Below are positions 1,827 through 49,723 of a DNA stretch of 60,019 nt, piece by piece. The notes beneath the pieces were generated by a model, which saw only the letters and a program-made list of their open reading frames with translations, did no database searches and was not told where the DNA came from. Made by a program: the position numbers and the translations under genes. The stretch lies in the NCBI GenBank assembly GCA_041738575.1, contig JBGSPO010000181.1:1-60019 (forward strand). The letters are read 5' to 3'. The number at the start of each line of letters is the position of its first letter. Position 1 is the stretch's first letter. The DNA comes from Candidatus Aminicenantia bacterium. Lineage in GTDB: Bacteria > Acidobacteriota > Aminicenantia > UBA2199.

Positions 1827-1827
1827 A

Positions 1828-2697
1828 ATGGCCGGAACGCCGGGCGGCAGCGCCCAGCCCCGCGGGGGATCCTTCCTGTTCGCCAGCGACCTGCATGGAC
1901 ATGAAGACCGATACCACAAGCTCTTTTCGCTCATGCGCCGGGAGCGGCCCCAGGCCGTCTTCCTGGGCGGAGACCTTCTGCCCCCCGGCGCTTCCGGCTT
2001 CATGGAAGGATTCCTGCTGCCGCGGCTGCGCCAGCTGCGCCGGGAACTGGGCGTGGCTTATCCGCCGCTTTTCCTGATCCTGGGCAATGACGACCCGCGC
2101 AGCGCGGAGGGCGAGTGGCTCCGCCTTGAGCAAGAGAGGCTCTGGCACTACAGCCATTTCCGCAAGCTATCTCTTGGACCTTATGCGGTCTACGGCTATG
2201 CCTGCGTGCCGCCCACGCCGTTCGCCTTGAAAGATTGGGAACGCTACGATGTTTCGCGCTTCGTGGACCCGGGTTGCGTCCCCCCCGAGGATGGACGGTT
2301 CAGCATTGAAATCGCCGAGGAAGAAAAAGGGTTCCCCACCATCCGCGAAGACCTGGCAGCGCTGGCCAACGATGACCCCCTGGAGCGGGCTATTTTTCTT
2401 TTCCATTCCCCGCCCTACCAGACGCTGCTGGACCGGGCGGCGCTCGACGGCCGCCAGGTTGACGGCGCCCCCCTGGACGTGCACGTGGGCAGCATCGCCA
2501 TCCGGCGTTTCATCGAGGAGCGGCAGCCGCTCATCACCCTGCACGGCCATGTGCACGAGTCGGCGCGCCTGACCGCGTCCTGGCGGGAAACGATCGGCAG
2601 GACCCATTGCCTCTCCGCCGCCCATGACGGCCCGGAGCTGGCCGTGGTCACCTTCGATCCACTGGACCCGGGCAGCGCGATCCGCCGCTTGCTCTGA
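1828..2697 (+). CDS. calcineurin-like metallophosphoesterase
   Basis: Motifs FASDLHGH, LGGDLL, ILGNDD, FHSPP and LHGHVHES match the metallophosphoesterase signature. ATG at 1828 lies 2 nt after the upstream stop; an alternative GTG at 1804 would overlap the upstream gene. Confidence 0.8.
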   Translation: MAGTPGGSAQPRGGSFLFASDLHGHEDRYHKLFSLMRRERPQAVFLGGDLLPPGASGFMEGFLLPRLRQLRRELGVAYPPLFLILGNDDPRSAEGEWLRLEQERLWHYSHFRKLSLGPYAVYGYACVPPTPFALKDWERYDVSRFVDPGCVPPEDGRFSIEIAEEEKGFPTIREDLAALANDDPLERAIFLFHSPPYQTLLDRAALDGRQVDGAPLDVHVGSIAIRRFIEERQPLITLHGHVHESARLTASWRETIGRTHCLSAAHDGPELAVVTFDPLDPGSAIRRLL

Positions 2698-2706
2698 AGC
2701 GGCAGG

Positions 2707-5700
2707 CTACTGGTTTTTCAGGGGCAGCAACCGGGCGGCGTCAGTGACGGCGCCTATTTTCACCGCGTAGCTGGTCTTCTTTTCTATGTCCTCGTCAGTG
2801 AGCAGGTGGTAGTCGATCAGGCCGCTGGACTGGTAGCCGGTGCGCGAGAAGTTGATCTCGGCCAGGCACAGGCTCCAGCCTTCCAGCCACAGCCCCAGCT
2901 CCTGCTTTTGCGCCGCGCTGCCCTGGAAGTGCAGCAGCAGGTCGATGTCGCTGCCCGGGCCGGCGGTGGCGTTCTTGGTGGAGCCGAACACGTACACGGC
3001 CTTGACCCCGAAACGGGCGCCGTCGAGCTGGTTGGCGATGCGCTCGGCCATGCGCAGCCGCCAGTGCCAGTGGTCTTCGCTGGCGGTCTCGGAGGGCTCC
3101 CGGGTTTCCTCCGTGGCGGCACTGGCGGATACCGGCGTGGCGATGAAGCCCAGGGCCTCGCCCAGGTCGGCATTCATCAGCACGCGCAGGACCTTGCCGC
3201 TGGTGGCTTGCGGGACGTCGATGACATGGATGGTGTCGGCCAGCGCGGCCGACTCGGGCAGGATGTCGGGCAGATAATTTTGCGAGGTGAGCAGGAACTT
3301 TTCGTTGAACTCAATGCCCGGGTCGTCGGGATAGAGCGGCAGGTAGCGTATTGCTGATTCGACCAGGTCCTGGAAGAAATGGGTGCCGAAGGATAATTCC
3401 GGGACATAATTGCCTTTCTTGCGCGCGATCTCGATCAGGGCGGCGGTGTTGTTGAAGTCGGAGTAGGTGACCGGCACACCGAGCTTGATGTCGCCGCGGC
3501 TGCCCCAGCGGCCCGGGCCCATCAGGATGAACTGGCGCTTGGGCAGCAGGCTGTTCAGCTTGCCAACCACCCTGCCGACCTCCAGCATCTCTTCGCTGTT
3601 TTCCAGCTGGCTGTACTTTTCGGGATCGACATAGACGACATGGGTAATGTCCGGAATCTTGCCGTTGGAAATGTAGCGATTGGCCGTGAAAATGACGCGG
3701 TCGGGGGCGATGTCCTTGGGAATGGGGCTGGACACGTTGCCGGCGGTGGAGGCCTGCGGCCGGCACTGCAGCAGGTAGAGGTTCTTGCCGTCCGAGGCGA
3801 ACTCGATGTCCACCGGGGTGTCCATCTTCTCCTGCAGGGTCTTGAGGATTGTCTGCAACTGCTTGATGAAGGGGGTGCGGGTGATCAGACCCTCGAAGGT
3901 GACGAACAGGTTGCGCTTGCTGAAGTCGAGGTTGAGGGCCGAGGGGGAGTAGATGTGGTCGTCCTCGTAGACCGAAATAATCTTCTCGATGCCCGGGTAT
4001 TCGTGGCCGCTCTCGGCCAGCAGGGCGGGGATCTCCTTGGTCTCGAAAGTGCAGGTCTTCAGATTGATGACGTCGATGCGCTTGGGCGAGTAGCGCATGG
4101 TCTCCTCGGCGGTGACGTTGACGCGCAGGTTGGGGATGCCCGGGGAAATCAGCACCGGGTAGTCGTCGCTGACGCGGTCCACGGCGCGCGTGCCCAGGCC
4201 GGGAACAAGGCGCGACAGGCCGTCCTCGCGCTTGATGCGCGACGACCAGCGGAACTCGTTGTTGCTGAAGGCGACGCCGGCGAAGGCAGGGAAGAAATAG
4301 TCGCCCACTTTATTGCCGACCACTTCCTGGATCATGATGCCCATCTCCTCGTGGAAGTCGAGCAGGCCGCGCTCGGCGCGGTACTCGATGGGATCGGGGC
4401 CGAAGATGGAGGCATAGACCTCGGCGATGGCGTCGGTGAGCGCTTCCAGTTTCTCCTGCTTGGTCCCCTGGTTGGCGAGGAACAGGCTCTTGTATTTCCC
4501 GGAAAACGCCGTGCCCATGCGGTCCTCGAGGAGGCTGGAACTGCGCACGATCAGCGGCTTGTCGCCCAGGTCGTCGAGGGCCATGGAGAGGCCCTTGACG
4601 ATCTCGATGGGAAAGTGCGAGTTCTTCAGCAGCTGGACGACGTTCTGGTACTCCAGGCGGATCTGGTCGATCTCCTTGTACTTCTGCTCGTTCACCTCTT
4701 CCAGGTTGTTGTAGCTGAGGAAGCTCATGATGGCGTCGGTGGTGATGTACCAGGTCTTGGGGTATTTCAGGTCGCCCAGGGCCGCGGAGTGCTCGCCGGG
4801 CTTGGAAAGGATCCTCTGGGCCAGGAAGAGGCCCGCGCTCTTGCCCCCCAGGCGGCCGTAGCCGCTGGCCGGGTAGATGATGCGCTGCACCAGGTCGTAG
4901 AAGTGGCGTACCTCGATGTGATTTTTGGCGATGTTGATGAATTCGAGGTCGTCGGAGAAAAAGCGGCGGATTAGCGAGACGCGCAGGCCCTTCTCCATGG
5001 GCGGGGAAAGCTCGTAGTTCCCGCCGGAAATGTAGTGGTAGTGGGTGATGGCGTTGATGATCTCCACCAGCGGCTGGTCGATGTTGTTGATGGCACGGCT
5101 GAGGAAGCCGGCCTTGTCCTCTTGGATCCACTTCTGGATGCGGCCCAGGATCTCCTTGTCGGTCAGGTAGCGGGCGGCGATGTGAAAGGTCTCGTCGCTG
5201 AGGGCGAGCAGCTCGTGCTGCGAGCGCCTCTGGCTGGGGCGGTTCATGTCGTCGCTGATTTCGCTCTGGGCCTCGTTGCGGTCCTTGCTCAGCGTTTTGA
5301 GCAGTTCCTTGGCCTCCATGACGCCGTTCCAGAAAAGGTGGTAGACCATCTTGCGGCCCAGGTGGATGTAGAGGTTCTGGTCGGTTCGCCGCAGCAGGTC
5401 GATCACCACCATCCATTCTTTCTTGTTCTTTTCGCTGAGGTCCTTCTGGGCCGTCTCCCATTCCCGCGACACCTGCTCCAGTTTCAGGTGCAGGATGGTG
5501 CGGCCGATGCGCTCGGCCACGGTTTGGAGCAGCTTGTGCTCGTCCTTGAGGAAGTAGCTGTTCTCGGTCTGGGGCACGTCGCTGGTGTATGAGACTTCAA
5601 TGCGGCCGACGACCTTGTCATCGACCTTGATATCCGCGCTCTGGAAGCGGGAGGAAGCGATATAGCCGGGACTGATATAGGTTTGGTTGTCGTATTCGAT

Positions 5701-10035: not shown

Positions 10036-10596
10036 ATGAAACGACATGGTTGGCTTGCAATGATCCTGGTTCTGATGTTCGCCGCCCCGATCGCAGCCGG
10101 CACGCTGGCGGGTATCACCTTGCCCGACACCATCGATGTCGACGGCCAGCAGCTTATCCTTAACGGCATGGCCCTGCGCAAGAAGGTCATTTTCAAGGTC
10201 TATGTGGCCGGCCTCTACCTGCCGGCCAAGGAACAGAGCGGCGAGAAGATCCTGGCCGCCGACGCCTCGCGCTGTACCGTCATGCACTTTTTGCGCAGCG
10301 TCAAGGCCAATCAGGTCAACGAGGCCTGGTATGAAGGCCTGGAAGCCAACACCCCGGGTTATTCCGCCCAGCTAAAGAAGCAGTTCGATGCATTGGCCGC
10401 GTTGATGGAAGGCTTCAATGAGGGCGACAAGCTGGTCTTTACCTACAAGGCTGGCATCGGCACCGAGGTCAAGGTCAAGGGGGTCATAAAAGCCACCCTG
10501 GGCGACAAGGCTTTCGCCGACGCCCTTTTCGCCTGCTGGATCGGCAAGAAGCCGGGGCCGGGAGAGAAGTTCAAGGCTGGATTGCTGGGCCAGTAG
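10036..10596 (+). CDS. exported chalcone-isomerase-like family protein
   Basis: Signal peptide MKRHGWLAMILVLMFAAPIAAG. The segment GITLPDTIDVDGQQLILNGMALRKKVIFKVYVAGLYLP is typical of bacterial chalcone isomerase-like proteins. GGAGG RBS before the ATG at 10036. Confidence 0.7.
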   Translation: MKRHGWLAMILVLMFAAPIAAGTLAGITLPDTIDVDGQQLILNGMALRKKVIFKVYVAGLYLPAKEQSGEKILAADASRCTVMHFLRSVKANQVNEAWYEGLEANTPGYSAQLKKQFDALAALMEGFNEGDKLVFTYKAGIGTEVKVKGVIKATLGDKAFADALFACWIGKKPGPGEKFKAGLLGQ

Positions 10597-10615
10597 TTCG
10601 GCCCGTTTTGGCTTC

Positions 10616-11557
10616 ATGGCCCTGAAGGAAGAAATCCTGGCCGAGAGCACTCTGTACCAGGGGAAGAAAAAGCCCCCTTTCCGCGCCACGAAGTGGATCT
10701 TCAGGCCGCTGCGGGTGCTGGGCTGCCTGCTCGTCGCCCATTTCCTGAACGTGTACCTGCAATGGACGGTCATCAGCCGCGATCTGGCCGGGAAACCGTC
10801 TTTTGATTCCCCGGAATATACCCTGCTCGGTTTTTCCCCACTCCACAACCAGGAGATCACTGCGGCCCGCCGCCTGCCGAACGCGGCGCCGACGGGTCGG
10901 GTCTTCGCCTTTTTTGATTTTTTCCACCCGGTGGTCTTCATGATCTGGAACAATGGCGGCGACGGGGATTTCTTCGACCTGGGGCCGGTCATGGCCGCCC
11001 TCCCTGTTGGCGCCAGCCGCATCTCCTTTTCCCCGGGCTCGATCTTCGTGCTGCGCCACGGCGAAAAAACCGTGGCCAGGAATTTCGGCGGCTCCATATT
11101 CGGGGCATTCTGGGCCCGTTCATTGAATGAGAATAACAACGGCTCCAACCCGACGGCCGGGCGGCTGCCCGGCTCTTTCATCGTCAAGCCGGCGGCAGGC
11201 TCGGCTTCCCTGAGGATCCCCTACCTGGTCTATTTTTACCTGCCCCTGGCGCTGATTGTCATCCTGATCGCCACCACGGGCCCGGGATTGGCCACGGCTT
11301 TTTTTTACTATGCCGGGATGTTCTTTCTTTTCGACTTCGAAAAGCTGCTGGCCGGTATCCCCCTGGACTGGCTGTTCGGCTCCCTGAGCCTTGAGCTTGC
11401 CGATCCCTGGATCAAGGTGCTGGCCGTGGGGCTGGCGCTGATCTTTCTGGCCGCAGCCGTTTACGGGTTGTTGCGCTGGAAGAGCGCCGAGATGCCGCCC
11501 AGCAGCAAGTGGATCGTCTGGTTCTTTATTCTGCTGCCGTTTTTCCTTTTCTTTTAA
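10616..11557 (+). CDS. hypothetical membrane protein
   Basis: 313-aa ORF with several hydrophobic helices in the C-terminal third (YLVYFYLPLALIVILIA, AFFYYAGMFFLF, VLAVGLALIFLAAAVYGLL, WIVWFFILLPFFLFF). I recognised no family. The antisense ORF looks like R/S/P-rich noise. Confidence 0.45.
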   Translation: MALKEEILAESTLYQGKKKPPFRATKWIFRPLRVLGCLLVAHFLNVYLQWTVISRDLAGKPSFDSPEYTLLGFSPLHNQEITAARRLPNAAPTGRVFAFFDFFHPVVFMIWNNGGDGDFFDLGPVMAALPVGASRISFSPGSIFVLRHGEKTVARNFGGSIFGAFWARSLNENNNGSNPTAGRLPGSFIVKPAAGSASLRIPYLVYFYLPLALIVILIATTGPGLATAFFYYAGMFFLFDFEKLLAGIPLDWLFGSLSLELADPWIKVLAVGLALIFLAAAVYGLLRWKSAEMPPSSKWIVWFFILLPFFLFF

Positions 11558-38582: not shown

Positions 38583-39404
38583 TTGTCGGCACTGAATTTC
38601 AAGGAGGCGTTGGCAGCCCTCGCCAGGGCGTTTCCCGCATACTTGTTCCATGCGGCAGCCCTGGTTCTCGGCGGACTGCTGATTCTCCTTGAATTCGGGT
38701 TGGCCTTGTTTGCTTTGCGCCTGGCGCGGATCACGGCTCCCGCAGCGGCTCCGCTCCTGGCGGCATTGATCCTGCTGGGAGGCTGGCTGACCGTCCTGGC
38801 CTGGCAGCGCTTCTTCCTCTACCGTCGCCGTGCCATCATGCTTGCCATGTTCTTCGGGATGGCTCCCGCCCAGGCCGGGTCCGAGGCCCGGCGCTTTTTT
38901 CCGGTCTATTCAAGCTGGGTCCGCTGGAACCGCCGTGTGCGCCAGGCATTCATTGGCCTGGGCGTGGAAAACGAGCCGGCAGCCCTCTCCACGCCTGGAA
39001 CTTTCGGCCGGCTGGCCGAGGCGGCATTCAGTGCGGTTGTCTTCGCCCTGGCTTTCGCCCGCGGCGGCGATCCGGCGGCGGCGATCCGGGAAAGTGTGGC
39101 GCTCTATTGGCGGCACGGGAACCAGGCCAGGCGCCTGATAAAAAGCTGGTCTATGTTTTCGCTTGCCGGCCTGGCGCTTCTTTTCCTGTTCCTGGCCCTG
39201 CCCAACTGGTTCATTTTCAGCAGCGCCGGCGCGCCCCCGGCGATCGGGCTTGTCCTGGCCCTGGTCATCGCCTGGACGCTGCACCAGGCCTTCATCTCGC
39301 CGTTGGCCCTGGCCGGAGCGAGCGCAGCGCTGTTGTCCGAAACTCAAGGCTGTGAACCCGATGCCGCCCTCTGCGAAAAAATCGCGCTCCTGCTTACTCC
39401 TTGA
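38583..39404 (+). CDS. hypothetical polytopic membrane protein
   Basis: 273-aa ORF with a TTG start, 4-5 hydrophobic segments and no recognised family. Its stop codon lies inside alpha-2-macroglobulin (A2M) 3'-end relic D. Confidence 0.4.
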   Translation: MSALNFKEALAALARAFPAYLFHAAALVLGGLLILLEFGLALFALRLARITAPAAAPLLAALILLGGWLTVLAWQRFFLYRRRAIMLAMFFGMAPAQAGSEARRFFPVYSSWVRWNRRVRQAFIGLGVENEPAALSTPGTFGRLAEAAFSAVVFALAFARGGDPAAAIRESVALYWRHGNQARRLIKSWSMFSLAGLALLFLFLALPNWFIFSSAGAPPAIGLVLALVIAWTLHQAFISPLALAGASAALLSETQGCEPDAALCEKIALLLTP

Positions 39405-39463
39405 CTCGACCGTCTCACTGGTGATCATGCCGGAGTACTGTGGGTGGTTCATCCCATGGTCGA
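39394..39463 (-). pseudogene. relic D: truncated, frameshifted copy of the alpha-2-macroglobulin gene 3' end
   Basis: The first 12 nt (ttactccttgac) are identical to 43840-43851. Overall identity is about 75% over 70 nt, with one 1-nt deletion. It translates to MNHPQYSGMITSETVE, compared with MYHPQYFGRTAIQTIEV in the intact gene. Confidence 0.65.
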
Positions 39464-39617: not shown

Positions 39618-40859
39618 TCAGAACAGGCGCCAGGAAGCCAGCACGGCAAGGATCCCCAGAGACGACAGCGCCATGATCGTGCAGTGGATGCGGCCGGCCA
39701 GGGTCCAGTAGCGAGCGTGCCACGCCTTCCAGCAGACAACGAGCAGGACAGAGCTCAAGAGGATGAACAGCCAGGGCCCGAGGCGCAGGGCCCCGCCGTG
39801 GGCAGGGACCAGCCGCGGGGCCGAGAGCAGGAGCAGGAGATACGCGGACTGGAGCAAGGCGATCGCACCGAGAGCGAGCTTGACGGACAGCGGTACCCGC
39901 TTCGCGATCGATTTGCCTGCCTTTTCCTTTCTCAGCCAGCGGAAAATGGCTCGCGACACCCAGAAAAGCAGGGTGAACAGCAGGAACCAAAGGGCGAACG
40001 AGGTAAAAAAAAATGCCCCTCGGGAGGCGAGCATCCGTGCCTCCAGCTTGGGAGGAAACAGGGGGACCGTGTCGATGCTGTGACGTCCCTTGGCGAGCTC
40101 GGCTTCCAGATCGAACACGATCTCCCGGTTGAAATCATGGAAATGGTAATAATGGATCCGCCTGGCATTCAGGTCCAGGACATAAGAGTACTGGGTGTTT
40201 CTCCCGCTCACGGCCCGCAGAATTTCGCGGCAGGAGGCCACGGTCGGAGTCTCCATCCGCGACAGCATGCCCACGGCCGTCCGGTAACGAGGGCAGGTGG
40301 GCCCGTGGCCTGCCAGCTCGGACTGGCGGAAATTGGTACAGACCTGGAAGCGTCCGTCGCCGCGGATGATCCGCTCGCCCTCGATGATGATCGAATTGCC
40401 GTTCCGGTCGCCAAACATCCACTGGGCGGAATACAAGCGGATGCGGTGCCGGCGGGCCAGCGCCTCCACTTCGCCGACGGTGGCGCACTCGGCCAGCGAC
40501 TTGTCCACGAAGTCGAAAGACAGGTCCTGGACATGAGTTCCGTCTGCCTGGGCCGGCACGAGGCGCGGGACGGCGAAGCCGTCGATAAAGAGCCCCTGGT
40601 CGTTCATGCCCCCTTCCCGCTCCTCGGCATTTCCGGCGGGATCGAACGTGCCGAAATAGACCATGCCGTGGCGAGCGGGGCCGCCGGGAATGAACCAGAT
40701 GCGCAGGTTCGTGGCGTTGTTGTCCTCGTTGTTGCCCACAAGAGTTGTTTTGGCATTCCGCACGATGAAGCCCGTGCAGGCGTGAGCAAACGGTGAAAGC
40801 AGGGCAAAGAGCAGCAGGGCCAGCGGCAGCGCTGGTGGCATGCTTCTCTGTCGTGTCAT
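39618..40859 (-). CDS. exported Ntn-hydrolase (choloylglycine hydrolase/C59-like or C45-like) with a C-terminal 4-helix membrane domain
   Basis: Signal peptide MTRQRSMPPALPLALLLFALLSPFAHA is followed directly by Cys (CTGFIV...VGNNEDNN), the hallmark of an N-terminal nucleophile. The last about 130 aa contain four hydrophobic helices. The 563-aa track ORF is an upstream run-on through relic B. Confidence 0.6.
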   Translation of the reverse strand: MTRQRSMPPALPLALLLFALLSPFAHACTGFIVRNAKTTLVGNNEDNNATNLRIWFIPGGPARHGMVYFGTFDPAGNAEEREGGMNDQGLFIDGFAVPRLVPAQADGTHVQDLSFDFVDKSLAECATVGEVEALARRHRIRLYSAQWMFGDRNGNSIIIEGERIIRGDGRFQVCTNFRQSELAGHGPTCPRYRTAVGMLSRMETPTVASCREILRAVSGRNTQYSYVLDLNARRIHYYHFHDFNREIVFDLEAELAKGRHSIDTVPLFPPKLEARMLASRGAFFFTSFALWFLLFTLLFWVSRAIFRWLRKEKAGKSIAKRVPLSVKLALGAIALLQSAYLLLLLSAPRLVPAHGGALRLGPWLFILLSSVLLVVCWKAWHARYWTLAGRIHCTIMALSSLGILAVLASWRLF

Positions 40860-40962
40860 AATTTTATTACGTGCGGGACGGATTGAAGGTTCAACGCCTG
40901 GCGGCCATTTCCAAAATCCGCGGCGTCCAGGCCCGGCTTCTCCGAGGAACTTGCTCCTCTGT

Positions 40963-41133
40963 TTATTCCCTAACCTCAACCTGCCGGATCGCCGTGCGGC
41001 CGAAATACTGCGGGTGGTACATGCCCTGGGCGACCGTGGGCATCCAGGTGAAGCGGCCCGAATACATGGCCTTGATGAAATAGACGATGCGCAGCGGCCC
41101 CTGCATGGAATAGGTGTAGAAGACCAGGCGGTC
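40963..41133 (-). pseudogene. relic B: truncated copy of the last 56 codons plus stop of the alpha-2-macroglobulin gene
   Basis: Hand alignment to 43840-44010 gives 155/171 nt identical with no indels, including a 62-nt perfect run (40997-41058 = 43874-43935). It encodes DRLVFYTYSMQGPLRIVYFIKAMYSGRFTWMPTVAQGMYHPQYFGRTAIRQVEVRE and a stop. Similarity ends abruptly upstream of 41133. Confidence 0.85.
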
Positions 41134-41217
41134 TGGCGCAATGGTCTGATTTGGATCTTCGAGTAGGCAGTATCGCCCGTCATTGACAATGTAAATGATC
41201 TGCTGCAGAATCGAAGC

Positions 41218-41604
41218 ATGGTGAAACGACCGCCGCCGGCGATTCGCGCCATCCTTTGCTCCCTGCTTGTCATTTCCGCCCTGCTTCCGGCAGCCGGCTG
41301 CAGGTCCATGGCTGCCCAGCAAAAAAAGATCGACGCCTATGAGGCCTCGGGCAAGTGTTTCAAATGCAAAGGCAGCGGCGAGGTCGAATGCCCGCAATGC
41401 AAGGGCCGGGGATGGATCACGTGCCCCCGGTGTTCGGGCAGCGGCAGAAACTCCGGCGTGCCGGCGACCAGCGTCGATCCCGCGAATTTTTGTCAGGCGT
41501 GCCAGGGCCATGGCCAGCTCGCTTGCCCGAATTGCGATGGCTTTTCACGCCTGAGTTGTGACCGCTGCGGTGGCAGCGGCATTGCTCCCCAAAAAGCGTA
41601 TTGA
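41218..41604 (+). CDS. lipoprotein with six DnaJ-type CxxCxGxG zinc-finger motifs
   Basis: Lipobox LLPAAGC. Motifs CFKCKGSG, CPQCKGRG, CPRCSGSG, CQACQGHG, CPNCDG and CDRCGGSG. 128 aa. Confidence 0.65.
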   Translation: MVKRPPPAIRAILCSLLVISALLPAAGCRSMAAQQKKIDAYEASGKCFKCKGSGEVECPQCKGRGWITCPRCSGSGRNSGVPATSVDPANFCQACQGHGQLACPNCDGFSRLSCDRCGGSGIAPQKAY

Positions 41605-41718
41605 CCTCGGGGATCCCACCATGAGGAAAATTGATTTTCCTGTCAGTTTCACGTATGGATTTTAGGCGGAAGGGAGCCGGAATGCCCCCGACCTGCCTGA
41701 TCAAGGGGAGATAGGATC

Positions 41719-42285
41719 GTGCGCAACCAACACACTGCCTTGCTGATTTTATTGTTCGCATGTACCACTGCCGGATGCACGAGAGACATAGAGCTTGTCG
41801 GCTATGGTCTCCGTCCTGGAATCCAGCATGGACTGAAAGTCGAGTTGGTCGGCAACGGCCCGAGCGGGGCATTGATCAGCGTTCAGAACATGTCGAACAA
41901 TATCATATCGATCAATCAATCGCCCTTGGCAATCATTGTCTCCGTGAAGAGGCGCAAGGGTGAGGGATTGGTCGCTGTCGAGCCTTGCGAGCGCATCATG
42001 ATCCACATGAATACCTCTCCGCGGCCAGATGATTTTGTAATCATTGCGCCGCGCCAGACGAGGAACATTTCTGTCCCCGTTTCATACAAAGCGGATCGCT
42101 ACCATACACTCGATAAAATCTACAGGATCGAGAAGGGCGATCTGTACGAGGTCGAAGTGCGGCTCGTTCCATATTTTGGAACATTCACCCAGGAGACGGC
42201 CGGCAAGACGTTGGCCGCTCTCATGATCCCAAACTATCTGCCCCAACCGTTGATGATGAATACCATGACCATCCGGGCGCGATAA
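41719..42285 (+). CDS. hypothetical lipoprotein
   Basis: GTG start. Signal and lipobox LLILLFACTTAGC. 188 aa, beta-rich, no recognised domain, and visibly lower GC than its neighbours. Confidence 0.5.
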   Translation: MRNQHTALLILLFACTTAGCTRDIELVGYGLRPGIQHGLKVELVGNGPSGALISVQNMSNNIISINQSPLAIIVSVKRRKGEGLVAVEPCERIMIHMNTSPRPDDFVIIAPRQTRNISVPVSYKADRYHTLDKIYRIEKGDLYEVEVRLVPYFGTFTQETAGKTLAALMIPNYLPQPLMMNTMTIRAR

Positions 42286-42288
42286 TGG

Positions 42289-42444
42289 TTATTCCGCTTC
42301 ACCGGGGCGGTGATTGTCCCTCCCGGGTTCCTTGCTGACCTCGATGGTCTGGATGGCGGTGCGGCCGAAGTACTGCGGGCGGTATATGCCCCGGACGGTC
42401 GCCGGCATCCAGTTGCGGCGGCTGGTGTTGACTGCCCGGAAACC
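42289..42444 (-). pseudogene. relic C: diverged truncated copy of an alpha-2-macroglobulin 3' end
   Basis: It translates to NGFRAVNTSRRNWMPATVRGIYRPQYFGRTAIQTIEVSKE plus a 12-codon tail and a TAA. Identity to 43849-43926 is about 80% over 42337-42414. An in-frame stop lies immediately upstream (42466-42468). Confidence 0.75.
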
Positions 42445-42558
42445 GTTCGATCCCCTATTGGCATATCATTTGACTTTATTTTGCTTCGGAGTATAAAGGC
42501 ACGAAGAAGGCTCCCGAGCGGGAGCTGCGGTATTTCAGGATCAGCAGGAGGTGTTCGC

Positions 42559-43692
42559 ATGTGTCAACGATGGGTCAGTGTCCTCTTCGTGGTGATGGCG
42601 TTTTCCCTGATATTACCCGGCCAGGCCGGATCTTGGAAGCAGATCGGCAAGGCCAAGGCCTGGGCCGGCACCATTGCCGGGGTGCCGCTCAACGGCAAGC
42701 TCTATACGGTGGATCAGAGCGGGGCGCTCTACGCGACCGAGCCGGCCAGCGGGGCCTGGAAACAACTGGGCAAGCCCGACTTCACCGCCACTGCGCTGCT
42801 GATGGCGGCTGCCGGCAGGCTTTTCACCATCGAGAATGACGGAAGCCTGTACGCGATCGATCCTGCCAGCGGCGCGTGGCAGCGGCTGGGCGCGGCCGGG
42901 TCCTGGGCTGGCACCATTGCCGGCGTGGGGCTGAACGGCAAGCTCTATACCGTGGAAAAGAGCGGCGCCCTGTACGTGACCGATCCCGCCAGTGGGGCAT
43001 TCAAGCTTCTCGGCAAACCCGATTTTGCCGCCACCGCTTTTCTGCTGGCTGCGGCCGGCAAGCTCTATTCCATTGAAAAGGACGGCAGCCTCTATGCCAT
43101 CGAGCCGGCTAACGGGTCCTGGAAACGGGTCGGAGCCGCTGCAGGCTGGGCCAACACGATTGCTGCCTGCGGCACGCCGGGCGCCATCCTGACCGTCGAG
43201 CGCGGCGGCAAGCTCTATGCCACCGATCCTGCCAGCGGAGTCTGGAAACAACTTGGCAAGACCGACTTCGCCGCCACCCGCTTCATGCTCCCCTGCTCGG
43301 GCAACCTCTTCACCATCGAGCGGGAAGGCAGTCTCTTTCAAGTGGACATCGGCGGGGCTGCGCCCTCCCTGGCGCCAGCGCCGGTGGCAAACACGGCGAG
43401 CGCCGCCGCAGTGGCCGGCAATCTGACTTTTGCCTTCATGGGCACCTGGCTGAACGAATCGGGCATGACCATGAGGGTGACCCTCGACGGCATCACCATG
43501 TCGATGGACGGCAAGCAGATCGGCCCGATCCCGTTCCAGGTGATCACCTCCAAAGGCAACACGCTGCTGATCGAAAGCAGCGAACCCGGCAAGGGGCCGA
43601 CCCGCCAGGAGATCGTCTTTCTCGAGGCCAAGCGCATTCAAATGGGCGAACAGGGGAGGACGGACCGGACCCTGACCTTCGTCAAGAAGTAG
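42559..43692 (+). CDS. secreted repeat (putative six-bladed beta-propeller) protein with a small C-terminal domain
   Basis: Signal peptide MCQRWVSVLFVVMAFSLILPGQAG. Six about 40-aa units of the type GKLYTVxxSGALYxTDPASGAWKxLGKPDF. CAGGAGG RBS before the ATG at 42559. The track ORF start at 42310 runs through relic C. Confidence 0.65.
   Translation: MCQRWVSVLFVVMAFSLILPGQAGSWKQIGKAKAWAGTIAGVPLNGKLYTVDQSGALYATEPASGAWKQLGKPDFTATALLMAAAGRLFTIENDGSLYAIDPASGAWQRLGAAGSWAGTIAGVGLNGKLYTVEKSGALYVTDPASGAFKLLGKPDFAATAFLLAAAGKLYSIEKDGSLYAIEPANGSWKRVGAAAGWANTIAACGTPGAILTVERGGKLYATDPASGVWKQLGKTDFAATRFMLPCSGNLFTIEREGSLFQVDIGGAAPSLAPAPVANTASAAAVAGNLTFAFMGTWLNESGMTMRVTLDGITMSMDGKQIGPIPFQVITSKGNTLLIESSEPGKGPTRQEIVFLEAKRIQMGEQGRTDRTLTFVKK
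42661..43389 (+). repeat. three in-frame tandem repeats of 243 nt inside the propeller gene
   Basis: Units start at 42661, 42904 and 43147 (tgggccggcaccattgcc / tgggctggcaccattgcc / tgggccaacacgattgct). Units 1 and 2 are clearly similar at the nucleotide level; unit 3 is more diverged. Confidence 0.8.
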
Positions 43693-43839
43693 CCACGCAG
43701 CTTTATCGCTGGGCAGATCAACGCCGGTTCAAGAGATCACCGCATCCCCTGGACGGGCGGTCAGTAGTATCACGTCGGCTCGAAGCCGGATTTCCAGAAC
43801 GACGCCCCGGGACGAATAATTTGCTGCCGGGCCTCGGGA

Positions 43840-46800
43840 TTACTCCTTGACCTCGATCGTCTGGATCGCCGTCCGGCCGAAATACTGCGGGTGGTACATG
43901 CCCTGGGCGACCGTGGGCATCCAGGTGAAGCGGCCGCCGTACATGGCCTTGATGAAGTAGACGATGCGCAGCGGTCCCTGCAGGGAATAGGTGTAGAAGA
44001 CCAGGCGGTCGGCGGCGTTCTCCTGGCGCGCCCAGGGCGTTCGGTATTTGTTTTGGTTCGTCGTATTGAATTCCTGCAGTGAGCGGGTGCTGGCGATGTC
44101 CTGGCGCAGCAGCTCGAAGCCGGCGGCCAATGGTTCGTCGACCACGCCGTAGGGGACTTCCTTGTCGGACTGGATCAACAGCTCGACCATGTAGGTCTGC
44201 CCGCGCAGGAAACTGGTGACCGACTCCCCTTTTTCGTTGTAGACGTTGCGCCGGATGTCGATGCCGCGGTTCTTTTTCCCGGCCCTGGCCAGTTTCCAGG
44301 TCAGCTCGCTGGTGACATAGACGGGCTGGTCGGCTGTAATCAGCACCTCGATCTGTTTGCTTGTGTCTGTGATCTTTTTTTGCGCCTGCAATACATCCCT
44401 GGGATTGGCAAATTCCTTGCCGGTCTTTTCGCCCAGCAAGACGATCTCGGCCCCGCGTGCAGTCGTCTTTTCAATCTGCCGCAGGTAATCGTCCATGGCG
44501 CAGAGGATCCAGAAGTTGGTCTGGGTCGTGTTCCAGCAATAAGGCTCGGCTTCGAGCAGCCAGTTGATGATGCGCTCGGCCAGCACGTGGCCTTTTTCCA
44601 CCTCCAGAACGGCCTGCAGCAGAAGGGCGGTGGCGAAGCGCGAGGAGTAGAATGGGAAGTCGCGGTGATAGGTGAATTCGCCAACGTCGAAATAGGCGAA
44701 GTCGGCCTCGACCTGCAGGCTGTTGTTGAACTCGTCCAGCATGGTTTTCAGCGTCCGTTCCTCGATTCCCTGGTTGTGCAGGGCCCGGTACAGGAAGACC
44801 TTGCCGGGCAAGGGCAGGCCGTCGCGCTCGGCTGCAAGCTTCTTCAGCTTCTTGTTGTCGGCCTTTTTGTCCAGGCTCAGCACGAACTGGTGGAAGCTGG
44901 CGCAGGTCGCGTCGAGGCTGGCGTGCTGCAGGTAAGTGGAGAGCTTCTGCAGCAGCTGCGGGTCGACCTTGTAATCGCGCTCCCGGGCCAGGTTCAATGC
45001 CCAGAGGACGTAGGCGGTCAGGTAGTCTGATGCGTACTGGCCGCCGCGGTAATAGGAGAGAGCCCCGTTGGCGCCCATGAATTCGGGGATGATCTTCAGG
45101 TAGCCGTTCACTGCTTCGCGGATCTGCGCCGCATCAAGGCCCAGGTCCAGGCGCTCGGCAAGCTGCGGGCTGAGCGCGAGGAAAGGCATGACCTTCGAGG
45201 TCCGCTGCTCCAGGCATTCGTAGGGATAGAAGACCAGCTTCCTGGCGATGTTGACCGCCGGGCGCAGCAGCGAGGGGGCGACCTTGATGGTGATGGCCTG
45301 CTGCTCGCCCTCGGCCTGGGGCTCGATCATTTTTTTCACCCTCTTGCCGCTGGCGAAATCGAGGAGGGTTTCGCTGACCAGGCGGTCGCTGACCATGAGC
45401 TTTTTCTCCAGGCCGTCCTTGTCGGCGGCGCTCAGGGCGAAGAATTCGACCTTGGCCTCGCCGACGCGCTCGGCCAGGAACGGAAACTGGAACAGGCCGT
45501 TTCCGCGCGGGTCAAGGGCACCCTGCAGCTGGGACGAGCCGCGAACCATTACGCCTTGCGGTTTGACCAGCAGGGTGAAGGAAAGCTTTCCGGCGGTGCG
45601 GTTGCTGAGCTGGGCGCCGGCGCTGAACTCGTCGCCCTGGCGGGCGAACTCGGGCATGGCCTCGGAGATGAGCAGGTCCTTGCTGACCATGATCTTCTTT
45701 TCTGCCGCACCGAAACTGTCTTCGCTGTAGGCCACGGCCATGATGCGATAGGTGGACAGCTGGTCGGAGCTCGTGAAATCGACAACGGCGTTCCCCGCCT
45801 CGTCGGTCTCCACGACCTTGAAGAACAGTACTTCCTTAAAATCGCTGCGCACGCGGATGCCGGCTATGGCGGCCTCGACACCGCCAAGCACTCCGCCGAC
45901 CATCCCGTCCGCCTCTTCCTCGCCCAGTTTCATACGGGCCATGCTTTTCATTTCCGCGGCCATGGGCGCGGGCATGATGCCGCCTGCAACACCACCATTC
46001 GGACCGAACTCATCTGCGGAGTTCCAATATTTGTCGGCCGAGACCGGGATCAACGCCATGTCGCAAGGGCGGTGGCTGCCGCCGTCAAAATAGATGTCGG
46101 ACCAGAGGAAAGGATGAAAACCCTTGGCTTCAGCCTTGACCGCGTAGCGGCCGCCGGGAAAACCGGGGAAAGAATAATATCCCTGGACGCTGGTCGTTGT
46201 CGTCTTCAGCTTGTTGTGTTTTTCATCCTCAAGGGTGACCGTGGCCCCGGCCAGCGGCGTGGAGTTGGGACTGAAGACGCAACCGAAAATAGCCGGCGCC
46301 TTCAGGTCGATGTCCATAAGGGGGCGCTCGAAGTTCCATTGTTTGTAATTCTTTGAATAATAGGTATGAATCGGTTTTGCCCACAGGCCAAAATAAGAAA
46401 AATATTCATGCGGGTCAGGCGTCTGGTAGTTTAGCAGGGACAGGTTGCCTTCATCCACGGCATATACGAAAAGCTTCGCCTTTACCCCCTTTTTCTGGTT
46501 ATCGCTGACCTTGATCTTCACTTTGGTCTTGCTAGCTGGCTTGATCTCGCCCGGGCTTTCCAAGTCCACCCGCAGGATCTTGCTGTCATCCTCTACTTTA
46601 AACTCCCTGGCGGCTTGCTCGGAGATGTTGTTGCCGTACATGGCGACAACGCTGACGCGGATGGCCGGGAAATATTCTTTCTTGACCGGGATATCCAATG
46701 GCGTCATCTTCTGCAGCGCGATGACCCGGGAATCGAGCACCTTCCCCCTTTCGATGGTCACCAGCGCCTGACCCTCCCGGGTGGAATGAATGAAGCACTT

Positions 46801-49575
46801 CAGCGTCTCGCCGATATGCAGAGTATGTTGATTGGATTCGATCCGCAGCTTGTCGGTCCCTTCGGAGTAGCCCCCGCCCCAAACAAAGAAACCGCCCGAG
46901 GTCGAAACCACGCGGCCGTTCGCGTCGGAGGTGTCGCAACGCAGGATATAATGGCCGGCTTCCGGAACGCGAAACAAGTGGGTTTTTGTTTTTTCAATGT
47001 AAACATCGTCGGGACCGGAAACTTTCTTTAGCAGGCGCCGGGATTTTTCATAATATTCCCTGTAGAGCGTGACGCGGATTTCGCCGGAAGCGGGTTTTCC
47101 CTGGAAATCGACCAGGGCCAGTTCGGATTTGATTGGTCCTTTCAGGTTCTGGTAAAAGTCGATATGGATTCCGGTCAGGAGATTTCCCGGGAAAAACAAT
47201 GACTGGGCCTGGGCGGTGAATTCCTTGCCTTCAGCTGATTTTCCTGTTGCAAAAAAGCCGAGTTTGGCCAGGAAATTAGTTTCCTTGAAATCGGCCATGG
47301 GGATGCTCAGAGTGTATTTGCCGTTGGCATCCAGTTTTTTGCTCCCTTTCCGCGGCGGGTCGCTCTTTGCCAGGTCGCGGTCGAGCCCGAAATTGAAGCG
47401 CTCCAGTCCATTCGTCGTGAACACTTTGGCAGCAACCGGATTCAGTCCGAAAACATAGCCAAAAGTATCGCCAGCCATGGGATTGCCTGCCAGGTAGGAA
47501 CCGCTGACAACAGGGTGGAACGTATCTTCCGGGAGGTAATGCTCCGCCATGCCGGAGATCTTCATTTCAAAAGTATTTGGCTGGTAGTAATCGATGGTCA
47601 CGTTGTGCTGGCCTTGCCAGGTTTGCATGTCCACGAATCTGACAATGATCTGGTGGCGGCCTTTTTTGCCTGCCGGGTCGGATTTGAATTCGTAGTGAAA
47701 GCCGCCCCAGCGGTCGAGCTGGAGAGAGTCGGTCTTGAGCTGTTGACGGTCGGGACCAAAAATTTGCAGGGTTGCCGCCGTGGCCTTTGGTGAAAAGATC
47801 TTCCCGGCCTTGTACTCCTTGATGATTCCGGCGATATGGACCGTGTCGCCGGGCTTGTAAAAATCCCGTTCGCTGAAGACCGTGATCCTGACCTCGCGGT
47901 CGGATGGGGGCCGGCGGTCGATCCTGGCCAGGGCCATGTCATTGTCGTTCGTATTCCTGGCCATGACCAGGTCGGATTCCTGGATCTCCCTGTCGCTGAG
48001 CAGCACGCCGTTTACGGCCGATTCTCCCAGGGGCATGGCATCCTTGGCATAACCCTTAAGGAAGAACGGCATCTTTCCCACCCCTTTGCCGCTGCGGTTG
48101 TCGTATAGCCAGTACAAGGTCTGTTCCTGGCCGGCCTTGATGACCATGTCCATGTTGCGGCGGTGGAAAACGTGCATGTCCTGGGGAGTGAAGGCGGGAA
48201 GGCGCATTAAGGCGATGTCCCGGCAGGCATTGTATGGTTCGTAGCTCTGGACCAAAACGCCGAAAAACCCCAGGGGCGATCCCAATTCTTGATCCCGCAA
48301 TGCGGGGTTGTTCGATTTCTCCGGCAGCCCGGTGAATTTTTGCAGGATCTCTTTCTCGATGAAGTCAGCCTTGAAATCCTTTTTCTGCAGCAAGCCAAAT
48401 TCCCGGTCAGTCAGCTGGGTATAAAATTCGGGCTTGAGCTTGAGCAAGCGGACGCTGGCCTGCTTCATGCTGTTGGCGGTCATGGACAATTTATGATCCT
48501 GCAGGGAAAAGTCGAGGCGCGGGGACTGGCTGGAGCAGACCCGGGCTTCGAGTTCCAGGTTCTCGGGAAGCCGCTCTTTGTACGTGTTGGACAGGTCCCG
48601 GTCGATTCTTATGTTCAGGCGATCGCCCGAGGCCAATTCGTCTTCCACGCTGATGAACAAGACTTCATTCTCATATTGGCGGGGCTCGAGATGGAATTTA
48701 AGGGGCGATCGTTCCAAGCCGGAGATTTTATGGACCTGGATTAGCCTGTCGTTGAATTCAGCCAGCGCGTTGGAGAACGGCAACCAAACATGGGGCGCAT
48801 CGGGAAAGAGGACCAGGGGGTGCCGGCCGGAATAGTGAAAAGTAGGCACCGTGTCGAAAGTGAAGGTGAAATCCTTGGCCGTGCCGGTATTACCCTCGCT
48901 GCCGCGAAAGCCTTTTTTGACGATGAGCTGGTAAAGCAAGCCTCGTTTCAGAGCGCTGGCGAAGCGGACCGCGATTTCTTCATTCGCCTTTTGCTGGAGC
49001 AGGATTTCCGCCCGCACGCCGCTCTTGGCCTCCTTGAGGACGAAAAAGCTTTTGGCTCCGCCAATGGTGACCGGCTGGTTGAAGCGCAGGGTAACGGGGT
49101 CTTTCACCCAGATCTCGCCGTCGAGCTTTTCCCCCGGCGTCAGCCGCGAAAAATAATCCCGGTCTCCGACCTTGACCTCGACGGGATAGGCCTGGGGCGT
49201 GCTCCATTGCCAGCGTATCTCCCCGGGCAGCACCTTTCCCGCCAGCGAGCCCGTTCCGGCCGGGATCACGGCCGTGTAGGTGGTGGAGTAGCGGAAGCGC
49301 GGCTCGGGCTTGAAGGCCAGGGTGCGATTGCCGCGCCAGGAAAATTCACCCTTGACCGCCGGGGTGATCCTGACCAGCGAGGCGCCGTCGCGTTTGCCGC
49401 CCAACGGCAGCATGTCGTCGGAAAAGGTGACGGTCAGTTCCCTGTTTTCCAGGCTCTGCAGGATGCCGGAAAGGTTGTAGGCCGCTTTCAGGCCCTCCTT
49501 TTCCGGCGCCTGGGCGACGGCCGCGGCCAGGAATAGGGTCAGCATGATGGTCGCAATGGATAGTGCAATTTTCAT
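43840..49575 (-). CDS. bacterial alpha-2-macroglobulin family protein with an intact thioester motif
   Basis: 1911 aa from MKIALSIATIMLTLFLAAAVAQA (signal peptide, AGGAGG RBS). The thioester motif YPYECLEQRTSK has CLEQ encoded at 45205-45216. There is a CarboxypepD_reg-like insert (TPLAGATVTLEDE...GYYSFPGFPGGRYAVKAEAKGF). The C-terminus DRLVFYTYSL...MYHPQYFGR is typical of the A2M receptor-binding-like end. Confidence 0.88.
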   Translation of the reverse strand: MKIALSIATIMLTLFLAAAVAQAPEKEGLKAAYNLSGILQSLENRELTVTFSDDMLPLGGKRDGASLVRITPAVKGEFSWRGNRTLAFKPEPRFRYSTTYTAVIPAGTGSLAGKVLPGEIRWQWSTPQAYPVEVKVGDRDYFSRLTPGEKLDGEIWVKDPVTLRFNQPVTIGGAKSFFVLKEAKSGVRAEILLQQKANEEIAVRFASALKRGLLYQLIVKKGFRGSEGNTGTAKDFTFTFDTVPTFHYSGRHPLVLFPDAPHVWLPFSNALAEFNDRLIQVHKISGLERSPLKFHLEPRQYENEVLFISVEDELASGDRLNIRIDRDLSNTYKERLPENLELEARVCSSQSPRLDFSLQDHKLSMTANSMKQASVRLLKLKPEFYTQLTDREFGLLQKKDFKADFIEKEILQKFTGLPEKSNNPALRDQELGSPLGFFGVLVQSYEPYNACRDIALMRLPAFTPQDMHVFHRRNMDMVIKAGQEQTLYWLYDNRSGKGVGKMPFFLKGYAKDAMPLGESAVNGVLLSDREIQESDLVMARNTNDNDMALARIDRRPPSDREVRITVFSERDFYKPGDTVHIAGIIKEYKAGKIFSPKATAATLQIFGPDRQQLKTDSLQLDRWGGFHYEFKSDPAGKKGRHQIIVRFVDMQTWQGQHNVTIDYYQPNTFEMKISGMAEHYLPEDTFHPVVSGSYLAGNPMAGDTFGYVFGLNPVAAKVFTTNGLERFNFGLDRDLAKSDPPRKGSKKLDANGKYTLSIPMADFKETNFLAKLGFFATGKSAEGKEFTAQAQSLFFPGNLLTGIHIDFYQNLKGPIKSELALVDFQGKPASGEIRVTLYREYYEKSRRLLKKVSGPDDVYIEKTKTHLFRVPEAGHYILRCDTSDANGRVVSTSGGFFVWGGGYSEGTDKLRIESNQHTLHIGETLKCFIHSTREGQALVTIERGKVLDSRVIALQKMTPLDIPVKKEYFPAIRVSVVAMYGNNISEQAAREFKVEDDSKILRVDLESPGEIKPASKTKVKIKVSDNQKKGVKAKLFVYAVDEGNLSLLNYQTPDPHEYFSYFGLWAKPIHTYYSKNYKQWNFERPLMDIDLKAPAIFGCVFSPNSTPLAGATVTLEDEKHNKLKTTTTSVQGYYSFPGFPGGRYAVKAEAKGFHPFLWSDIYFDGGSHRPCDMALIPVSADKYWNSADEFGPNGGVAGGIMPAPMAAEMKSMARMKLGEEEADGMVGGVLGGVEAAIAGIRVRSDFKEVLFFKVVETDEAGNAVVDFTSSDQLSTYRIMAVAYSEDSFGAAEKKIMVSKDLLISEAMPEFARQGDEFSAGAQLSNRTAGKLSFTLLVKPQGVMVRGSSQLQGALDPRGNGLFQFPFLAERVGEAKVEFFALSAADKDGLEKKLMVSDRLVSETLLDFASGKRVKKMIEPQAEGEQQAITIKVAPSLLRPAVNIARKLVFYPYECLEQRTSKVMPFLALSPQLAERLDLGLDAAQIREAVNGYLKIIPEFMGANGALSYYRGGQYASDYLTAYVLWALNLARERDYKVDPQLLQKLSTYLQHASLDATCASFHQFVLSLDKKADNKKLKKLAAERDGLPLPGKVFLYRALHNQGIEERTLKTMLDEFNNSLQVEADFAYFDVGEFTYHRDFPFYSSRFATALLLQAVLEVEKGHVLAERIINWLLEAEPYCWNTTQTNFWILCAMDDYLRQIEKTTARGAEIVLLGEKTGKEFANPRDVLQAQKKITDTSKQIEVLITADQPVYVTSELTWKLARAGKKNRGIDIRRNVYNEKGESVTSFLRGQTYMVELLIQSDKEVPYGVVDEPLAAGFELLRQDIASTRSLQEFNTTNQNKYRTPWARQENAADRLVFYTYSLQGPLRIVYFIKAMYGGRFTWMPTVAQGMYHPQYFGRTAIQTIEVKE

Positions 49576-49723
49576 TTCCGCCTCCTGAGTGTCGGGCAAG
49601 CCAAGCGGATTGGACGGCTTTTTACCCAAAATTGGCAAAAAGTCCCCCGCCGCTTCAACCGCCAGGATTATGATGAAGAAAAATGGTTTTTACAACCCCC
49701 GGCCCGCAGGGAAGCGGGAGGGC

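Follow-up and report, generated by a model that had tools for sequence, protein, structure and literature searches.

The 60,019-nucleotide stretch of DNA analyzed here (the window) is contig JBGSPO010000181.1 from a Candidatus Aminicenantia bacterium. It carries a gene for a bacterial alpha-2-macroglobulin (A2M) whose own 3' end recurs three more times behind it, in the same orientation and interspersed with unrelated genes. The metagenome-assembled genome (MAG) containing it, called G000 in what follows, has 2.1 Mb in 251 contigs and is 72% complete; the genomes of its relatives carry G labels, and their loci or contigs, including metagenome contigs, carry L labels. About 22 loci were read in this genus of an uncultured Acidobacteriota lineage. 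In these the A2M gene and a neighboring operon are constant, and 0-3.3 kb of unrelated cargo lies between the two. Judging from the sequences compared, the interval between the A2M stop codon and the neighbor, which is a few dozen bases long, is a recombination hot spot, and the gene for an Ntn-hydrolase-like protein found there in G000 is one of its cassettes. The array was probably built by sequential displacement through recombination anchored in A2M, with homology-facilitated illegitimate recombination as the likeliest form, a reading that we hold with somewhat better than even confidence.

The repeated 3' end of the A2M gene

The A2M gene (43840-49638, minus strand) is the conserved anchor of the locus. 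Its 1932-aa open reading frame (ORF) has the MG, bait-region, A2M and bMG10 domains and the CxEQ motif of a thioester-type bacterial alpha-2-macroglobulin: bMG10, A2M, A2M_BRD and MG2 match in Pfam above threshold, there is also a CarboxypepD_reg match, and the thioester motif reads CLEQ (YECLEQ in the translation). The working 3' end of this gene, F, occupies 43840-44010 on the minus strand and comprises the last 56 codons and the stop. A displaced copy, R, is found downstream on the same strand (40963-41133), again with 56 codons and a stop, and with no gene body. When the two are aligned without gaps at an offset of 2877 bp, 155 of the 171 positions are equal (90.6%), and the longest perfect run is 62 nt, with 40997-41058 in R identical to 43874-43935 in F and in the same orientation. 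On the A2M strand, the variants closest to this core are CGGC in F against TTCG in R immediately upstream, and G in F against C in R immediately downstream. An earlier note on this DNA had reported a 62-nt perfect direct repeat inside a 171-nt tract about 91% identical. This is confirmed by the alignment and by a BLAST search of the 171-mer against the whole MAG, which finds two strong copies only (E 3.5e-85 and 1.7e-63). Thus the F/R repeat is neither a chance match nor a genome-wide repeat. One edge of the homology falls exactly on the stop codon, and the other lies at about 41133-41138 in R and at 44010 in F. Exact-match metagenome scans returned 0 matches for a 39-mer of the right flank of R and 0 for the 62-nt core.

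The same note had calculated what recombination between the copies would do. Removing 2877 bp in silico does keep the A2M frame, and the predicted change of tail, from ...AIQTIEVKE to ...AIRQVEVRE before the stop, is reproduced. R has a stop of its own, located 103 nt ahead of the Ntn-hydrolase-like gene start at 40859, so that this is also the computed distance after deletion, where about 100 nt had been expected. One correction is needed: the propeller gene and both lipoprotein genes in the intervening DNA are on the plus strand, opposite to both A2M and the Ntn gene.

A profile of 210 positions, built from 20 working A2M tails and searched with nhmmer, reveals four A2M-end copies in the window, namely F, C, R (E 6.5e-54) and D. 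Relic C (42325-42428, minus strand) is a truncated A2M end of about 100 nt that belongs to repeat family D2 (tblastn E 2e-8; nhmmer E 4e-17). Relic D (39395-39463, minus strand; nhmmer E 7e-8) is a fourth, decayed end, located just past the Ntn stop and abutting the 3' end of the neighbor gene. All four copies reach the stop codon and their 5' edges differ, lying at profile position 39 in R, 110 in C and 140 in D. Read in the direction of A2M, the array runs from A2M-F through the propeller gene, C, lipoprotein genes 2 and 1, R, the Ntn gene and D to the neighbor. For annotation this carries a warning, as short ORFs that overlap R, C or D should be taken as relics.

The A2M-Ntn junction and the 2.9-kb insert

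The segment formed by R, the spacer behind it and the Ntn gene aligns colinearly with its equivalent in L071, L078 and G024, where the A2M end is a working tail. Per 171 positions, R has 9 differences from the working tail of L071, 13 from that of L078 and 16 from F, and nine variants common to R and L071 are absent from F, including the residues M, S and VEVRE of Ntn-linked tails. Since R is closest to the working tail of L071 and shares these variants against F, it can be recognized as a former working end. To judge from these alignments, it corresponds to a tail that remains in use in the sister lineages.

The short allele predicted for related strains does exist: A2M is followed by the Ntn gene after 101-107 nt in three lineages (G024, L071 and L078/L080). 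In G024 about 105 nt separate the end of the A2M open frame from the start of Ntn. In the contigs found via Ntn homologues, A2M of L071 (3077-8896) is followed by Ntn 104 nt later, and the gap is 101 nt in both L078 and L080. L071 is the closest relative at the locus: the entire A2M gene is 90.4% identical in nucleotides, the part made of R, Ntn and D 90.3%, and the neighbor operon 91.6%. Across the junction, the allele produced from G000 by deletion in silico can be aligned to both L071 and G024 with no interruption. The same A2M/Ntn junction holds a different insert in G001 and L072-L074, made of two tetratricopeptide repeat (TPR) genes and an outer-membrane protein gene on the opposite strand; this G001-type array is known from G001 and from three independent assemblies (NCBI and JGI samples). 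Since this junction has received two different inserts and three lineages have the short allele, a short A2M-Ntn arrangement is the most economical precursor of G000, and the 2.9 kb is most simply seen as a later insertion. Parsimony and the nearness of R to working tails would both set the direction as insertion rather than deletion.

The Ntn-hydrolase-like gene (39618-40859, minus strand) encodes a signal peptide, then ...FAHA/CTGF, and then a C-terminal membrane domain. In the sequence ...SPFAHA/CTGFIV, the Cys is the putative nucleophile, with the cleavage site placed by us and not by a prediction tool. The protein reaches 48.7 bits against NCBIfam C45_proenzyme (NF040521; E 6.7e-13), below the cut-off of 85, and has no Pfam match at E<=0.1. 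Homologues at 36-42% identity carry PF03417/PF02275, and the best match in a PDB sequence search is a choloylglycine hydrolase, at an E of only about 0.3. As an Ntn hydrolase (C45/C59; PF03417 AAT, PF02275 CBAH), the protein is a distant relative only. In the alignment, the 103-nt spacer from the R stop to the Ntn start (40860-40962, minus strand) is the same one that follows the working A2M stop in the short-allele relatives. The spacer contains no terminator-like site on the minus strand and no strong promoter-like site, and tail plus spacer show no Rfam family, unusual fold or structured element. Annotators should be aware that in G000 the Ntn gene is now separated from A2M transcription.

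On its far side the Ntn gene is flanked by relic D, whose counterparts occupy the same place in G024, G001, L071 and L078, and so the Ntn gene is itself a cassette. The earlier note had proposed that A2M-Ntn, a predicted operon, was the ancestral arrangement and 41134-44010 a later insert. The affinity of R and the short alleles uphold this gene order for the immediate precursor of G000. They do not make the pair ancestral: eight congeners have an empty site, and with relic D at its flank the Ntn gene is cargo, not an original operon partner.

Two observations concern the same segment in relatives. Past the Ntn gene, the short-allele contig L071 has two successive A2M-end relics (10396-10464, 69 nt; 10545-10735, 190 nt) with about 80 nt and no gene in between, and the second of them is absent in G000. 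The G001-type array (L072:6871-7037; L073, L074; G001 C8:3263-3434) contains an inverted segment made of the last 54 nt of the A2M tail, the 103-nt spacer and the start codon region. This inverted leader is the equivalent of window 40849-41016, is 85% identical to it, and lies directly before the outer-membrane-protein gene, where the ATGAACAACA start of the cargo gene mirrors the ATGACACGACA start of Ntn. The same leader therefore precedes two unrelated cargo genes.

Matches elsewhere show that the 2.9-kb insert is composite: it contains at least three units, each with its own history. The secreted beta-propeller-like gene (42559-43692, plus strand) is convergent with A2M and has weak PQQ_2, Tachylectin and DUF6923 matches. 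The module that it forms with relic C is 88-91% identical in nucleotides to G017, G003 and G020; an equivalent of relic C follows the propeller gene in G017, where the order is colinear, and a remnant of it is seen in G003. The last 34 nt of F and the DNA past its stop are also akin to the propeller-linked tails of G003 and G017 (4/34 differences to G003, 11/34 to G021), and the remainder of F and the upstream A2M are akin to G021 and L071. Inside the propeller gene, 42627-43355 consists of three 243-nt tandem units, the later ones 75% and 60% identical to the first, and such internal repeats are likewise present in G003, G017 and G020.

Lipoprotein gene 2 (41719-42285, plus strand; 188 aa, lipobox LFAC) belongs to a module common to G003, with which it is 85% identical; its region has a lower GC content (0.51-0.53), and the protein has no Pfam or NCBIfam match. 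The lipoprotein gene 1 unit (41190-41606, plus strand) includes a coding sequence at 41218-41604 with DnaJ-type CxxCxGxG repeats, for which Pfam DnaJ_CXXCXGXG scores below threshold, and a promoter-like site lies ahead of the gene at 41183-41211. Exactly 41190-41606 is 93% identical in nucleotides to ENA contig L075, where it sits beside an extracytoplasmic function (ECF) sigma gene, and it is apparently a single-gene unit that occurs elsewhere in an unrelated context. Between this unit and the truncated 5' edge of R are 56 nt of filler with no match (41134-41189), delimited by the end of homology to every A2M tail at 41133-41138 and by the start of homology to L075 at 41190. The R/filler boundary (41133/41134) is presumed to be an illegitimate junction. 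Relic C is closer to A2M than R is, yet it is more diverged, and it also occurs in G017, which suggests that the block, or part of it, arrived pre-assembled. Pfam detects no mobile-element gene among the three insert genes, and restriction-modification genes are not part of the insert, whose contents are the propeller gene and the two lipoprotein genes. Exact-sequence look-ups of the window's Ntn and lipoprotein-1 proteins found no match.

The same site in other members of the genus

The far edge of the variable region is set by a convergent neighbor gene (38583-39404, plus strand; 273 aa) that keeps its position and synteny in about 20 genomes and has no Pfam or NCBIfam match. Its amino-acid identity is 55% to G021 and 81-83% to G024 and G023, and the adjacent LeuD/LeuC-like genes are 92-95% identical to the same three genomes, so the neighbor gene is fast-evolving or has been exchanged.

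The site is empty in eight congeners (G008, G010, G012, G014, G015, G018, G019 and G021), where the A2M stop overlaps the 3' end of the neighbor or lies within about 60 nt of it. One of these, G021, is close to G000: their amino-acid identity is 90-91% for the 3' region of A2M and 95% for the genes that follow. Elsewhere in the genus the site holds 0.6-3.3 kb of unrelated cargo. The propeller gene is found in G003, G017 and G020, and lipoprotein 2 in G003. A cNMP-binding/aspartase-fumarase fusion is present in G002, G017, G020 and G023; this recurrent 624-aa cassette joins a cyclic-nucleotide-binding part to a class II aspartase/fumarase (Lyase_1 and FumaraseC_C) and is read in L045 (G002), L043 (G020), L052 (G023) and L060 (G017). 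The cargo is a PMT-like membrane protein in G004, and TPR proteins with the outer-membrane protein in G001. In G011 it is an AT-rich block with a dCTP-deaminase-like gene (L049, oriented 620-3823), which is the last of four co-oriented genes; another protein of the block, 501 aa long, has an HExxH-like motif and matches no family, and the block resembles a defence island, although PADLOC found no match in it.

In the G009 locus (L047), a 230-nt direct repeat that is 91% identical (oriented 466-695 versus 3861-4090) consists of the A2M tail and 100 nt of the neighbor 3' end, and it flanks a 3.2-kb insert whose genes encode an IS200-like (Y1) transposase and a GH1 glycosidase. A2M-end relics are also present in G003, G004, G005, G009, G017, G023, G024, G001, L071 and L078. 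When the relatives are included, the 5' edges of the relics lie at profile positions 22, 39, 44, 107, 110, 120 and 139-161.

The A2M gene itself is an inter-species mosaic. In 200-nt windows compared with loci L065-L071, G000 is nearest in turn to L071 (86-98%), G003 (87-94%) and G021 (93-95%), and identity falls to 60-75% in several segments, for example at about 49200-48900 and 45700-45400. Homologous exchange within A2M must therefore be frequent.

Origin of the array and comparison with known systems

These data can be assembled into a model of sequential displacement. Incoming DNA would consist of an A2M 3' end followed by foreign genes. On one side, a homologous crossover would take place in the long, conserved and heavily mosaic A2M gene; on the other, a non-homologous join would form within the final 60-230 nt of the resident gene. 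A2M would then be completed by the new end, and the old end, together with whatever followed it, would be pushed downstream as a relic. Products with both convergent genes intact would be the ones to survive. In G000, the immediate precursor would have been a short A2M-Ntn allele of the type seen in L071, L078 and G024, into which the composite 2.9-kb block (propeller gene, relic C, lipoprotein 2 and lipoprotein 1) was inserted, leaving R before Ntn. The repeats are then a by-product of insertion and not a dedicated site. Once in place, the 62-nt core is a plausible substrate for RecA-dependent deletion, which would restore the short allele, and for gene conversion.

Several points weigh against this model. 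No donor with the entire 2.9-kb block was found, and the 56-nt filler matches no source. The clustering of non-homologous joins in the last ~230 nt is unexplained, and selection for both genes intact is assumed. The G009 duplication runs 100 nt past the A2M stop and is more like an insertion with long target duplication. Recombination between tail copies is scarless, so the short alleles of relatives could themselves derive by deletion. A deletion allele and a circular product in the organism's own population are, for their part, predictions from assembled sequence.

The perfect core bears on what has happened since, or during, the insertion. Among 20 working tails, an identical 62-nt core is shared by 0/190 species pairs, the median being 5-6 differences. 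All 16 differences between F and R fall in the 109 flanking nt (Fisher P 6e-4), and the changes private to R number 7 in the flanks and 0 in the core. In a simulation placing 16 differences over the repeat, the probability of a run of at least 62 nt is 0.009 with uniform placement, 0.039 when placement is weighted by between-species site variability, and 0.018 when half is uniform and half is weighted. The perfect core thus modestly suggests gene conversion between F and R, or else the footprint of a crossover. The hint of conversion in the earlier note gains modest statistical support (P about 0.01-0.04) that is not decisive. A breakpoint in F at the core's left edge was also considered, as G021 differs from F at 1 of 75 left-flank positions and at 5 of 62 core positions; it is not significant, because the baseline divergence between G000 and G021 in A2M is already 5-13%. 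The one clear switch in F concerns the last ~35 nt, to propeller-linked sequence.

A core of this kind is also what a crossover between diverged tails favors, and the whole insert could be attributed to one such event. A circular or repeat-ended linear molecule with an A2M end and cargo would have produced both copies by a single crossover in the tail, and the 2877-bp circle could be released again as a RecA-driven mobile cassette. Direct repeats longer than 30 bp around an insert with no mobility gene, single-copy at the unoccupied site in relatives, fit the class described in PMC2853133, and the 230-nt duplication of G009 covers both convergent gene ends. We nevertheless consider this origin unlikely. 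It needs parental tails with identical cores, which none of the 190 species pairs has; the left flank of R is not donor-like and has variants in common with L071, which is the nearest stand-in for the resident sequence; and relic C, nearer to A2M yet more diverged than R, points to a block already assembled on arrival. A reading of F and R as reciprocal chimeras (Campbell) was rejected: the left flank of R has 10 and 15 differences to G017 and G003, 7 to F and 3 to L071, counts that do not support the likeness to G017/G003 seen by eye.

An enzyme could have done the same work. Site-specific integration into the A2M 3' end by a recombinase acting in trans, as in tRNA-gene islands, cis-mobilizable elements (CIMEs) and integron cassettes, would supply a replacement gene end and lead to tandem accretion. 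It would explain why, much as at tRNA/tmRNA island sites, the gene is intact while truncated 3' ends pile up in tandem in one orientation. The 60-kb contig and the cassettes lack genes for tyrosine or serine recombinases: PF00589 matches lie on other contigs only, and PF00239 has no match. Elsewhere, the MAG, which is 72% complete, has genes for three tyrosine recombinases, so a recombinase in trans is possible. The relic 5' edges, however, range from profile position 22 to 161, which leaves no common core; the homology of R reaches 75 nt upstream of the perfect core; and tail and spacer have no Rfam match or structured element. Taken together, site-specific integration is very improbable. Even less credence can be given to an assembly artefact in which two co-existing strains, with a propeller-type and an Ntn-type haplotype, were joined across the 62-nt core. 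The sequence does come from a metagenome bin in 251 contigs, and a perfect repeat of this length can confuse short k-mer graphs. Yet the left flank of R meets the lipoprotein-1 side by a unique junction and must continue into some right flank, like arrays occur in many independent assemblies (the G001-type one was recovered four times), and no contig with the alternative allele is in the bin. A more adventurous idea, to which we attach only a slim chance, is that the A2M 3' end and its 103-nt leader form an integrase-free site of cassette acquisition: circles looped out by RecA would re-enter genomes by a single crossover in the tail, and the leader would drive any gene behind it. This would be an analogue of the integron that works by homologous recombination and varies envelope proteins beside a periplasmic protease trap.

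Under sequential displacement, the genus offers a natural series for the entry of foreign genes with no mobile-element enzymes, from the empty site to one cassette and then to several. If the population is mixed, the 62-nt core would also make repeat-mediated gene gain and loss measurable in the wild.

The locus belongs to a known kind of structure, that of arrays of displaced gene ends and of insertions with long target duplication, here behind an anchor gene that is unusual. In tRNA/tmRNA-gene islands, an element-borne copy replaces the 3' end of the gene and the old 3' fragment becomes the direct repeat at the far end, leading to tandem arrays; these islands, which PMC2853133 also discusses, use a site-specific integrase and a fixed crossover core. 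The A2M locus likewise has a replaced 3' end, the old fragment at the far end and a tandem array. Unlike these islands and integron-like cassettes, it has no recombinase in cis, its relic edges vary, and no crossover core is shared. In Neisseria, minimal mobile elements are alternative cassettes that sit between a pair of conserved genes and are swapped via flanking homology, and here too two conserved genes bound a site that holds unrelated cassettes or none, depending on the lineage. A difference is that, to our knowledge, minimal mobile elements have not been described as leaving duplicated ends of the flanking genes.

Insertion with long target duplication was described by Nobusato, Furuta and Kobayashi for restriction-modification genes: the insert is shorter than 20 kb, its near-identical direct repeats exceed 30 bp and measure tens to hundreds of bp, and a related genome has one copy where the site is unoccupied (Furuta et al., 2010; PMC2853133). 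The G000 insert resembles it in its 171-nt repeat, with 2877 bp between repeat starts, in the single copy of L071, L078 and G024, in having no transposase or integrase, and in a repeat edge at a gene 3' end. It differs in having cargo other than restriction-modification genes, repeats of 91% identity whose flanks have diverged, and recurring events at a single site across many species.

Sequential displacement by homology-facilitated illegitimate recombination was put forward for the orphan arrays of type VI secretion system (T6SS) effectors, Rhs and contact-dependent inhibition (CDI) genes (Kirchberger et al., 2017; PMC5361080; and the work on Rhs/CDI orphans that it cites). As in T6SS effector, Rhs and CdiA arrays, a constant gene body here carries a working 3' end (F) followed by truncated 3' ends in the same orientation (C, R and D), the displaced end keeps its former downstream gene, simpler intermediates occur in relatives, and there is no integrase. 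In contrast to those arrays, the anchor is a homologue of a periplasmic protease trap and not a polymorphic toxin, the ends are a conserved bMG10 terminus with near-identical peptides and not alternative toxin domains, and immunity genes are replaced by exported or metabolic genes that are unrelated to one another and in several cases lie on the opposite strand. Arrays of displaced gene ends are thus not confined to polymorphic-toxin loci, and they may form behind a conserved envelope gene if it is long and recombines often.

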